Shown here: positions 4,690 to 39,298 of the stretch, piece by piece | How positions within the stretch are numbered: the first letter of the stretch is position 1 | How the letters are laid out: every line of letters starts with the position of its first letter | DNA from: Octopus vulgaris | Lineage: Eukaryota | Assembly: GCA_951406725.2 (NCBI GenBank) | Contig: OX597814.1 | Coordinates: 195,734,001-195,798,000 of the forward strand | Reading direction: 5' to 3' | Length of the DNA stretch: 64,000 nucleotides | Translations under genes and position numbers: made by a program | Notes under the pieces: model-generated | What the model was told of the DNA's origin: nothing | Databases searched by the model: none | The model's input: only the letters and a program-made list of their open reading frames with translations

Positions 4690-5084
4690 TTCTACTATAG
4701 GCACAAGGCCTGAAATTTGGGGGAAGGGGCCAGTCGATTAGATCGACCCAGTACAAAACTGGTGATAAATTTATCGACCCCGAGAGTATGAAAGGCAGCA
4801 AAGTCGGTTTCGGTGGAGTTTGAAGTCAGAACGTAATGGCAGACGAAATACCTATTTGTTTACTACCCACAAGGGGCTAAACACAGAAGGGACAAACAAG
4901 GACAGACATAGGTATTAAGTCGATTACATCGACCCCAGTGCGTAACTGGTACTTAATTTATCGACCCCGAAAGGATGAAAGGCAAAGTCGACCTCGGCGG
5001 AATTTGAACTCACAACGTAACGGCAGACGAAATACCGCTAAGCAATTCACCCGGCATGTTAACGATTCTGCCACCTCACCGCCT
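4690..5084 (-). mobile_element. dimeric SINE family A
   Basis: Head near 5084, internal junction GACGAAATACCTATTTG at about 4843-4859, second unit ending in the alternative tail (GGCCTTGTGCCTATAGTAGAAAA). Confidence 0.85.
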
Positions 5085-17837: not shown

Positions 17838-18417
17838 TACACGCACACACACACACATATGTATATCTTTATCACAAGCACGGGTGCGTAGTTATATATA
17901 TGTATGTATGTATTGTAGCAAATGTAACTTCACGTGAGACCAATAAACTTGTAACCGAGTTTAGTCGAATCTCTGTCATCAGGAAAAAATGATCAACACA
18001 AGGGAAACAATGAAAACAAAATGTTTTCTATTCTGTTTCAATGACTGAATCAATTTACTCTACTCGCTGTTCAATGAACCGAGTTATGAGAAACACTCCT
18101 TTGTTTTTGTTTTTTGTTTTTTTTTGTTTTTTTGTTTTTGTTTTTTTTTTCTTCTTCTTCTCTCTTCTTCTGATAATGAATTATAGTTGTTTTACTGATG
18201 TTCAGCTTACTTGCGAAGTGTTTGGTTAAAAGCTAAAAAATTTATGATCTAAAACGCAGATTTAGTGCAAAGATATTTGCGGGTTTATTTAGAAGAGAGG
18301 AGCTCTAACAAGGATTAAAAGTATTTTGTGCAGTAATTTCAGGTGTTTTAAGCATACACTTTTTCCCCGTCTCCCTCCATTCTCATCTCTCCTTCCCCCA
18401 CTCTCCCACATCTTCCT

Positions 18418-19387
18418 ATTTCTTTATTACCCACAAGGGGCTAAACACAGAGGGAACAAAAAAGGACAGACATAGGTATTAAGTCGATTACATCGACCCC
18501 AGTTCGTAACTGGTACTTAATTTCTCAACCCCGAAAGGATGAAAGGCAAAGTCGACCTCGGCGGAATTTGAACTCACAACGTAACGCAGACGAAATACCT
18601 ATTACTTTACTACCCACAAGGGGCTAAACGCAGGGGGGACAAACAAGGACAGACAAACGGATTAAGTCGATTATATCGACCCCAGTGCGTAACTGGTACT
18701 TATTTAATCGACCCCGAAAGGATGAAAGGCAAAGTCGACCTGGGCGGAATTTGAACTCACAACGTAACGCAGACGAAATACCTATTTCTTTACTACCCAC
18801 AAGGGGCTAAACATAGAGGGGACAAACAAGGACAGACAAACGGATTAAGTTGATTATATCGACCCCAGTGCGTAATTGGTACTTAATTTATCGACCCCGA
18901 AAGGATGAAAGGCAAAGTCGACCTCGGCGGAATTTGAACTCACAAGGTAACGCAGACGAAATACCTATTTCTTTACTACCCACAAGGGGCTAAGCATAGA
19001 GGGGACAAACAAGGATAGACAAAGGTATTAAGTCGATTACATCGACCCCAGTTCGTAACTGGTACTTAATTTATCAACCCCGAAAGGATGAGAGGCAAAG
19101 TCGACCTCGGCGGAATTTGAACTCACAACGTAACGCAGACGAAATACCTATTTCTTTATTGCCCACAAGGGGCTAAACATAGAAGGGACAAACAAAGACT
19201 GACAAAGGGATTAAGTCAACTACATCGACCCCAGTGCGTAACTGGTACTTATTTAATCGACCCCGAAAGGATGAAAGGCAAAGTCGACCTCGGCGGAATT
19301 TGAACTCAGAACGTAGCGGCCGACGAAATACTGCAAAGCATTTCGCCCGGCGTGCTAACGATTCTGCCAGCTCACCGCCTTCTGCCA
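18418..19387 (-). mobile_element. pentameric SINE family A insertion
   Basis: Five units at an exact 183 bp period (18415, 18598, 18781, 18964, 19147), one head, and TSD ACTCTCCCACATCTTCCT at 18400-18417 and 19388-19405. Confidence 0.9.
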
Positions 19388-19532
19388 ACTCTCCCACATC
19401 TTCCTCCCTCACCCTCTCTAAACATCTGTTCATATAAAATTGGCATGAGCGATTCTTTCTTGTATATGTTCATTGTCTTGGGATTCACGGTCAAACGGGT
19501 GGGTGGAATTGTGCGAAAATTTACACAGATAT

Positions 19533-19950
19533 AGGCGCAGGAGTGGCTGTGTGGTAAGTAGCTTGCTAACCAACCACATGGTTCCGGGTTCAGTCCCACT
19601 GCGTGGCATCTTGGGCAAGTGTCTTCTGCTATAGCCCCGGGCCGACCAATGCCTTGTTAGTAGATTTGGTAGATGGAAACTGATAGAAGCCTGTCGTATA
19701 TATGTATATATATATATGTACGTGTGTGTGTGTTTGTGTGTCTGTGTTTGTCCCCCTAGCATTGCTTGACAACCGATGCTGGTGTGTTTACATCCCCGTC
19801 ACTTAGTGGTTCGGCAAAAGAGACCGATAGAATAAGTACTGGGCTTACAAAGAATAAGTCCCGGGGTTGATTTGCTCGACTAAAGGCGGTGCTCCAGCAT
19901 GGCTGCAGTCAAATGATTGAAACAAGTAAAAGAGTAAAAGAGTAAAAGAG
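19533..19950 (+). mobile_element. SINE family B, full length
   Basis: GGCGCAGGAGTGGCTGTGTGG head to (GTAAAAGA)n tail. Confidence 0.9.
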
Positions 19951-21484: not shown

Positions 21485-21717
21485 ATATTTATTTATTGTC
21501 CACAAGGGGCTAAACATAGAAGGGACAAACAAAGACTGACAAAGGGATTAAGTCAACTACATCGACCCCAGTGCGTAACTGGTACTTTATTTATCAACCC
21601 CGAAAGGATGAAAGGCAAAGTCGACCTCGGCGGAATTTGAACTCAGAACGTAGCGACAGACGAAATACTGCTGAGCATTTCGCCCGGCGTGCTAACGTTT
21701 CTGCCAGCTCGCCGCCT
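21485..21717 (-). mobile_element. monomeric SINE family A with 17 bp TSD
   Basis: TSD GAAATTTGTGTAAAAAT at 21468-21484 and 21718-21734. Confidence 0.9.
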
Positions 21718-33451: not shown

Positions 33452-33850
33452 GGCGGCGAGCTGGCAGAATCGTTAGCATGCCGGGCGAAATGCATAGTCG
33501 TATTTCGTCTGCCGCTACGTTCTGAGTTCAAATTCCGCCGAGGTCGACTTTGCCTTTCATCCTTTCGGGGTCGATTAAATAAGTTCCAGTTACTACTGGG
33601 CTCGATATAATCGACTTAATCCCTTTGTCTGTCCTTGTTTGTCCTCTCTGTGTTTAGCCCCTTGTAGGTAGTAAAGAAATAGGTATTTTTTTCGGCTCTT
33701 TACGTTCATAGTTCAAATTCCTCCGAAATATACTTTGCTTTTTGTCCTTCTGAGGTCGAAATAACAAGTACCAGTTGAACACTGATGTCGATATAATTGA
33801 TTTACCCCTTCCCCGAACTTGGTTACCTTGTGCCAAAATTTCAAACTAAT
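33452..33850 (+). mobile_element. dimeric SINE family A
   Basis: Junction AAAGAAATAGGTATTT at about 33673-33688; a further degenerate copy follows at about 33870-34025. Confidence 0.85.
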
Positions 33851-38789: not shown

Positions 38790-39254
38790 CTTAAAAAAGA
38801 TGGGTGAATGTAGCAAGGATGGCACGTATGAATGACGAAGCCACCTTGACTATGATTCTATGAACCGTAAACATTAATACAGAGAGTTGCTTATTTGCAA
38901 AAAAAAAAGAAATATAACATGTGACTTCATTGACCGAGGTTACCGTGGTCTTTTCCGTAGGCTTTTCTTTCCACGGGTAAATCTCACCTGTCCTCTCCTT
39001 TACACTTCATATTGACATTTCTGTGATAACGATCCCTATTGATCAATTTTTTTTCCTCTCCCTTTTTTTTCCTCTCCCCCTCTTTAAAAAATTTTTTAAT
39101 TTTTTATTTTATTCCCCCTTTTTTTGTCCTCTTTCTTTCCCTTTACGATACCTTTTGATCGAAAACCAAACCCCCTTTTTTACCCCCAAAAGAAAAGCTC
39201 TATCTTGTAATTTGTCCTGTCTGTGTGCAGCCCTGTGTGGCTAATAAAGAAACA
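38790..39254 (+). mobile_element. probable LINE 3' end (ORF end plus T/C-rich 3' UTR)
   Basis: Frame ending [22 protein letters not shown], a long pyrimidine-rich UTR, and terminal GCCCTGTGTGGCTAATAAAGAAA. Clade not established (L1/Tx1-like guess). Confidence 0.45.
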
Positions 39255-39298
39255 TATCTCCCTGTCTCTATGTATATGCACACACACATATATATATA

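Follow-up and report, generated by a model that had tools for sequence, protein, structure and literature searches.

The genome of Octopus vulgaris contains, within a window of 64,000 nucleotides of contig OX597814.1 (the whole stretch of DNA analysed here), a SINE array that raises the question of how five units came to be joined at one internal point behind a single head, and whether they arrived together. TRF on the window reports a repeat of period 183 at 18415-19331 (5.0 copies, 92%). The array lies on the minus strand and consists of one head-bearing unit of 232 nt and four units of 183 nt within an 18-bp TSD, whose copies at 18400-18417 and 19388-19405 are identical at 18 of 18 bases. 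This agrees with a preliminary description of the locus as one tRNA-like head with five units of about 183 nt in a single 18-bp TSD. The features are as follows:

18400..18417, no strand: TSD copy at the 3' end of the element; it shares its final base with the tail and, read in element sense, begins with (A)GG, as does head position 49.
18417..18599, minus strand: last unit (positions 49-232), of the young subfamily, with a 1-nt deletion near 62, 72G, 172A/174C/176A, 194T and 222A.
18600..18782, minus strand: middle unit; 5' part of the last-unit type, from about 126 of the first-unit or common type.
18783..18965, minus strand: middle unit; 5' part of the last-unit type, 3' part a haplotype with a 36-nt string that has 25 exact genomic matches.
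18966..19148, minus strand: middle unit; last-unit type to about 174, then another type.
19149..19332, minus strand: body of the first unit (49-232); its tract at about 131-218 is identical to the monomer at 21485.
19333..19380, minus strand: tRNA-like head, positions 1-48, with an A-box-like motif; a B-box-like motif lies 3' of it at about 74-84.
19381..19387, minus strand: seven extra bases equal to head positions 12-18.
19388..19405, no strand: TSD copy at the 5' end of the element, pairing with 18400-18417.
21485..21717, minus strand: neighbouring monomer with a 17-bp TSD; likely conversion donor for the first unit of the pentamer.

The neighbouring monomer with its 17-bp TSD and the self-derived nature of the bases 5' of the head were also as first described. 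The exact period of 183 holds for the four downstream units, in which a 1-nt deletion gives this length, but not for the first (unit 0, 184 nt) or for the family, whose period is 184 as judged from junction spacings genome-wide. All junctions in the pentamer fall at the same internal point, although one has a tail variant. The same junction had been claimed at four other loci in the window; those at 4850 and 63275 are indeed at head position 49, whereas that at 33680 is decayed and that at 400 is only a second-unit piece of about 21 nt. Between pentamer units 9-20 of 183 sites differ, most of them at positions that are polymorphic in the family as a whole; each unit has about 3 private changes, in a star-like pattern. 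A second, unrelated, abundant SINE-like family occurs at window 19530-19950 and has at least 10 copies in the window.

We found 39,269 exact matches to the tail-head junction in the genome and 0 to a reversed control; exact matches number 32,934 for a 26-nt head string and 75,354 for the tail. In 1.28 Mb of sampled DNA the elements fall into two sister families, A and B, that have positions 1-150 in common (4 differences) and differ in their tails. A sample of 133 complete elements, partly chosen for junctions, comprises 50 A, 26 B, 21 AB, 10 AA and 26 longer or irregular elements. Multimers make up 8 of 16 full A elements in stretches chosen blind and 33 of 69 in head-centred stretches. Overall, about half of full-length copies are multimers, and the number of units ranges from 1 to 10 or more. 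The median TSD is 15 bp; because a TSD was detected in no more than 35-62% of complete elements, all rates are biased. The young subfamily has 3,753 exact matches to its 5' markers and 3,618 to its tail, of which 1,068 then run into the junction.

The family has the properties of a tRNA-derived SINE, namely dispersal at high copy number with variable TSDs and box-like motifs, identified by eye, at about 12-23 and 74-84. We take these motifs to be the A and B boxes of the general Pol III consensus, from which the element would be transcribed. ARAGORN found no tRNA gene in the SINE, and an Rfam scan returned no ribozyme family and 2 chance hits. The element may resemble MetaSINE, a class with a 66-bp Meta-domain after the head, and the family itself is probably already catalogued. 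Other arrangements were seen as well. L351 and C12:21107051-21108942 are arrays of ten or more units with private deletions common to units, and have the appearance of nascent minisatellites. C5:87874181-87875487 and L086 hold tandem repeats of the head alone, covering positions 1 to about 64 at a period of 65-67 and joined through the site-49 TSD. In L329, near 1500, a tRNA-like sequence is directly fused to the last ~30 nt of the SINE/LINE tail.

Since a junction that recurs genome-wide could reflect either the RNA or the target, we examined what follows intact tails. Among 165 intact A tails, 100 run into SINE sequence, 95 of them at position 49, 2 at 16 and 3 elsewhere, in a sample enriched for junction loci; the junction is thus as fixed genome-wide as the preliminary description held. 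The remaining 65 tails are terminal, and their next bases are G/T, G/A, T, A, T, each position at 62-83%; 18 of the 65 match site 49 over at least 5 bases, compared with 0.07% of random positions. At non-SINE insertion sites 50 of 91 TSDs start with GGT (consensus GGTAT), the 91 being the A-terminated elements with a detectable TSD among 238 complete elements, a set enriched for the young subfamily. The SINE head itself has GGTATTTCG at 49 and AGAA(A/T)CG at 16, and in the L347 array, whose heads have C at 49, the junction uses site 16. Our data indicate that the junction is fixed because GGTAT, the motif at which the family inserts, is found at position 49 of the head as well, which makes the junction a target site of the family. 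The preliminary reading of the unit as GT...AG was an artefact of register. The unit reads G-GT...TA, and the G of 'AG|GT' is head position 49, which is G at all 164 junctions whose unit aligns from 49 or before (7 more start later). Since this G belongs to the head and no AG precedes it there, splicing is removed as an explanation. By eye, tail variants seemed strongly linked to the motif that follows, but the counts at single loci were too small to support this.

Insertions into the head are also seen directly. Nested insertions, in which site 49 is followed by a new head, have 262 strict matches genome-wide. Among 30 inspected cases, L073, L076, L079, L098, L070 and L089 have a private variant on both TSD copies, four are non-host targets with the same motif, and several are ambiguous double heads. 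The nested case in L073 retains the outer TSD of its host.

We asked whether the units of a multimer come from common or separate sources. The earlier view that units were drawn from different dispersed variants stands, as does its argument from unit heterogeneity against rolling on a single circle. A tandem master fares worse: no same-source pair was found in 1596 pairs among 57 last units of young-first multimers, where 6 would be expected with 262 sources, and a conserved order of haplotypes across arrays was not found. Three diverged second units had no near-identical copy elsewhere among the best 40 candidates scored for each (best 96, 96 and 94%). In two-unit arrays adjacent units differ by 6.7% (n=13), compared with 6.3% for unrelated copies.

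The order of the units is polar. Multimers picked by a young tail before the junction number 69, and in 44 of them a young first unit is combined with an older last unit of type A or B; 20 young tails with no exact junction next yielded 0 arrays with another type first and the young type last, and an unselected sample gave 6 versus 2. Heterodimers outnumber homodimers in the youngest cohort. B occurs as a last unit, and B last units have diverged by 6.0%, equal to B monomers (6.0%), while their first units have diverged by 3.5%; first and last A units are equally diverged (2.8 versus 2.3%, n=27). TSD mismatches are more frequent in B-terminated multimers (19 of 156 bases) than in A monomers (34 of 592; p=0.008). 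B monomers have 7 mismatches in 125 bases (TSD found for 12 of 34), which makes them not older than A, and p=0.065 relative to B-terminated multimers. TSD divergence and last-unit divergence are uncorrelated in 38 A-terminated multimers (rho 0.02), and dimers with and without common rare alleles have TSDs of equal age (12/214 and 22/366). Taken together, the TSD-age tests are mixed.

Rare alleles are common to first and second units at 43 of 326 sites in 52-150 (2-3% after shuffling) and at 0 of 41 in 151-222, and 24 of 71 dimers have such sharing in the 5' half only. In arrays of at least three units, middle units agree with the last unit over 52-100 (56 of 69 informative sites) and with the first unit over 191-222 (87 of 109), these sites not being independent of one another; only 4 of 338 sites match neither. 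These first/last hybrid middle units show homology-driven duplication. L346 and L351 have stepwise shared mutations and private deletions across units, as in minisatellites. At position 49, 22 of 46 multimer heads are non-G, much as monomer heads are (30 of 53); multimer heads therefore come from the incoming copy. Of 68 head-bearing young multimers, only 1 is a nested primary.

These data are consistent with a model, for which we see the balance as even, in which the SINE inserts into resident copies at its own target site, the surplus head is lost through homology and the segment across the junction is then duplicated. A partner enzyme would nick at GGTAT, with or without help from pairing of read-through RNA. 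Homology to the resident head would let the new cDNA anneal in register and replace that head, and the product would be a new head and unit followed by the resident sequence from 49 to its end, inside the old TSD of the resident. More units would arise when the junction-spanning segment is duplicated by slippage or unequal exchange, and by repeat insertions. Since multimer heads are of the incoming type, growth in place needs the resident head to be replaced. We infer this replacement by analogy with R1/R2 junctions, where upstream homology anneals, as described in the available part of that source (PMC2718515). Growth in place explains the unique old last units, the polarity and the older TSDs of B-terminated arrays. 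It also means that the array cannot be taken as inserted in one event on the strength of its single outer TSD, as the preliminary description had done, since in-place growth leaves the same TSD. On the other side, the incoming-type heads are accounted for more simply by re-priming, as set out below, and the argument from age is countered by the B monomer TSDs. Self-targeted growth and re-priming may both operate. We lean slightly towards the broader statement that the SINE is its own preferred target and that about half of its insertions become concatemers, either via a head swap resembling prime editing that makes no new TSD or via a looping RT re-primed on the same motif.

The pentamer itself has a composite history. 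A 31-nt string in its first unit occurs genome-wide only there and in the monomer 2.1 kb away, and a private haplotype at window 19149-19250 and 21485-21590 is common only to these two; the tract that they have in common is likely the product of local gene conversion, a later event. All middle units have the 5' markers of the last unit; the change to another type comes at about 175 in one, before 139 in another and before 126 in the third. The polarity of the pentamer is reversed relative to the family trend, with the young unit last. For the middle unit at 18600-18782 the best other copy is 97% identical (among 40 scored of 1582 candidates). In relatives, 18152-18399 is covered by one contig each from organisms B (depth 42.1) and C (depth 6.26). 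A difference at 19423 recurs with the same depths, 36 letters from the end of its piece, which places the start of the piece at 19388. From these matching contig records, which cover both sides and not the joint itself, we infer that organisms B and C have an empty site with one TSD copy, which is the extent to which the empty site anticipated in related species was seen. Compared with B and C, the flanks have diverged by about 1%, with 1-2 substitutions in the 248 bases on the left and 1-2 more on the right. A contig of organism A crosses the left pentamer junction with no difference. No contig record spans the pentamer, short-read contigs cannot resolve unit number, and five units is the count in the reference sequence. 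The whole pentamer would then be younger than the split from B and C, and one step or several both fit. Given its perfect TSD, the low flank divergence and the star-like private changes, in-place growth needs several events in a short time.

A tentative alternative, possible though we favour it less, is re-priming within one insertion. Here a cDNA ending at the head hairpin would act as a GGTAT primer, pair with read-through sequence 3' of the tail, in the same or a different RNA, and loop, while homology switches would make the hybrid units; template jumping as first suggested thus survives in modified form, with GGTAT pairing and no processing step needed. Predicted folds give the head a long hairpin of 13 bp whose loop has position 49-50 on its 3' side, and 8 of 34 headless copies start at 45-56. 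Only 1 of the 34 starts at 49, so a fixed 5' end there was not seen among them and the processed RNA of the preliminary description finds no support. Re-priming would also yield heads from the 5' unit and a single outer TSD, it suits the absence of a T4 terminator from both family consensuses and from the sequence before the end of the pentamer, and L197, L247 and L249 are young arrays with near-identical units. The youth of the pentamer locus, with its perfect TSD and apparently empty site in relatives, fits as well. However, re-priming predicts symmetry between young and old units, and young units come first; it predicts source loci for last units, which were not found in three of three tests (best 40 candidates each). 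RNA-templated bases at TSD starts were not detected (9 versus 7 mismatches, no asymmetry, three per side from few loci), and the stepwise mutations in long arrays need several rounds.

We consider it unlikely that multimers are re-inserted whole from read-through transcripts. A nested insertion would make a dimer source locus, Pol III, starting at the new head, would continue through the host that had lost its own, and the resulting multimer RNA would insert again. Nested primaries exist, the lack of an internal terminator would permit read-through, and the host head would be lost with no new repair step; but nested primaries are as rare among head-bearing young multimers as stated above, and last units have no common source. 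A genome-wide search for a source pentamer found none, nor any second array with both of two unit markers, which give 16 and 25 matches at different places. Read-through from nested sources would need thousands of sources.

DNA slippage between the GGTAT of the head and a GGTAT starting the 3' TSD, which would duplicate a monomer in place and leave conversion to diversify it later, is very improbable. It yields exactly the observed junction and suits homo-arrays such as L182/L197, and conversion is evident at the pentamer locus. Against this, the units of dimers are as different as unrelated copies, 21 of the 133 complete elements are AB dimers, heterodimers predominate in the youngest cohort, and the TSD of the pentamer starts with GGA, not GGTAT. 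A circular 183-nt RNA, a spliced GT-AG unit or a variable-length tandem master is largely refuted and highly unlikely, for although the junction is fixed and a few arrays have identical units, no AG acceptor lies before position 49/50, the head is always linear and 5', arrays often end in units of the sister family, a second junction exists at 16, unit order is not conserved and the Rfam scan gave no ribozyme. Three further candidates were rejected: a constitutive Alu-like multimeric master (unit number 1-10+, last units with no common source), a retrozyme (no ribozyme family in Rfam) and an R1-type tandem (units headless with no spacer, and only 262 strict nested cases).

Multimerisation of SINEs is already known, and a clear cause for the fixed junction is what is new here. 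In the blood clam Scapharca broughtonii, the available part of one report describes arrays of the form TSD1-(SINE)n-TSD1 in which, as in the octopus, the first unit has the full tRNA head, later units have one common head truncation and one outer TSD encloses the array (PMC11481361). In the clam such arrays are about 3% of high-scoring copies and internal tails are truncated too, whereas in the octopus they are about half and tails are complete; unlike in the clam, the octopus junction is the insertion motif and families are mixed (PMC11481361, in part). The clam arrays are discussed there as unequal recombination between TSDs. R1 arrays and R1/R2 pairing similarly involve sequence-specific TPRT that re-targets an existing insertion, and read-through target sequence anneals to the target, with upstream homology giving junctions that have no TSD; R1 copies are full-length, autonomous, TSD-separated and at an rDNA site, while the octopus SINE has the target in its own head and headless units (PMC2718515, PMC6795142, in part). 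SINEU elements, as far as the source extends, are moved by Tx1-clade LINEs with a target preference (Tx1-Mar) and form tandems by sequential insertion, a likeness for which the octopus has a candidate partner only; there the target is another transposon and tandems sandwich a TSD (PMC4494074). Up to half of B2, Dip and Ves copies are head-to-tail multimers, which in these mammalian families are described as full-length units (PMC8466645), and squamate SINE-derived satellites have tandem units of partial SINEs in homogenised arrays (PMC10702118). In the available parts of these two accounts no fixed internal junction is tied to an insertion motif. In the DRT2 system an RT makes concatemeric cDNA from a template region of a non-coding RNA, as re-priming would, although this is an unrelated bacterial defence system and an analogy only (PMC12039810, in part).

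The mechanism had been put forward as undescribed; similar arrays are published in the clam, and self-targeting of the head was not found in print. Our full-text literature search brought up the structural precedents above, but no account in which a SINE inserts into its own head. The available part of a 2026 octopus repeat annotation leaves self-targeting unmentioned, with 'dimer' and 'nested' at 0 occurrences (PMC13282606).

The family provides tens of thousands of natural replicates of how TPRT is resolved when the target is homologous to the template. Most work on this step has been done with R1/R2 and with engineered insertion. The family also offers a testable origin for the headless SINE arrays and SINE-derived satellites of clams and reptiles. 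If arrays grow in place, a locus changes state yet gains no TSD in the process, with consequences for the dating of repeats and for treating SINEs as clean insertion markers. If self-targeting is true, SINEs would have a path to minisatellites that operates on the scale of the genome, and the retrotransposon would continually overwrite the promoters of its own old copies.

The 3' tail of the SINE is, by sequence similarity, common to L1/Tx1-like LINEs. Over its last ~45 nt, family A is similar to the 3' end of a LINE in L042 that has APE, RVT_1 and zf-RVT domains and whose best PDB match is L1 ORF2p, and the last 24 nt of the tail are identical in LINE fragment L330. A LINE with a GGTAT target, the true partner, was not found, the relatives that have the tail in common targeting other motifs. 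The L042 LINE family has 150 scored matches at 89-100% identity and its own fixed target at 19 of the 21 loci where the tail was found (30 loci examined). L043:1-9000 is a tandem array of 1.8-kb units that are 98-99% alike and all end with the same tail motif; three long frames in it had no Pfam match. In the window, 38859-39257 is a 3' fragment of a related LINE family with the tail motif, which elsewhere is followed by a (TATC)n target. L042:3960-8657 (C4 near 70.03 Mb) and L281-L310 belong to a young LINE family with many intact 1132-aa frames, and LINEs of the L042 type frequently occur as tandem copies about 5.26 kb apart, with one fixed target within another repeat.
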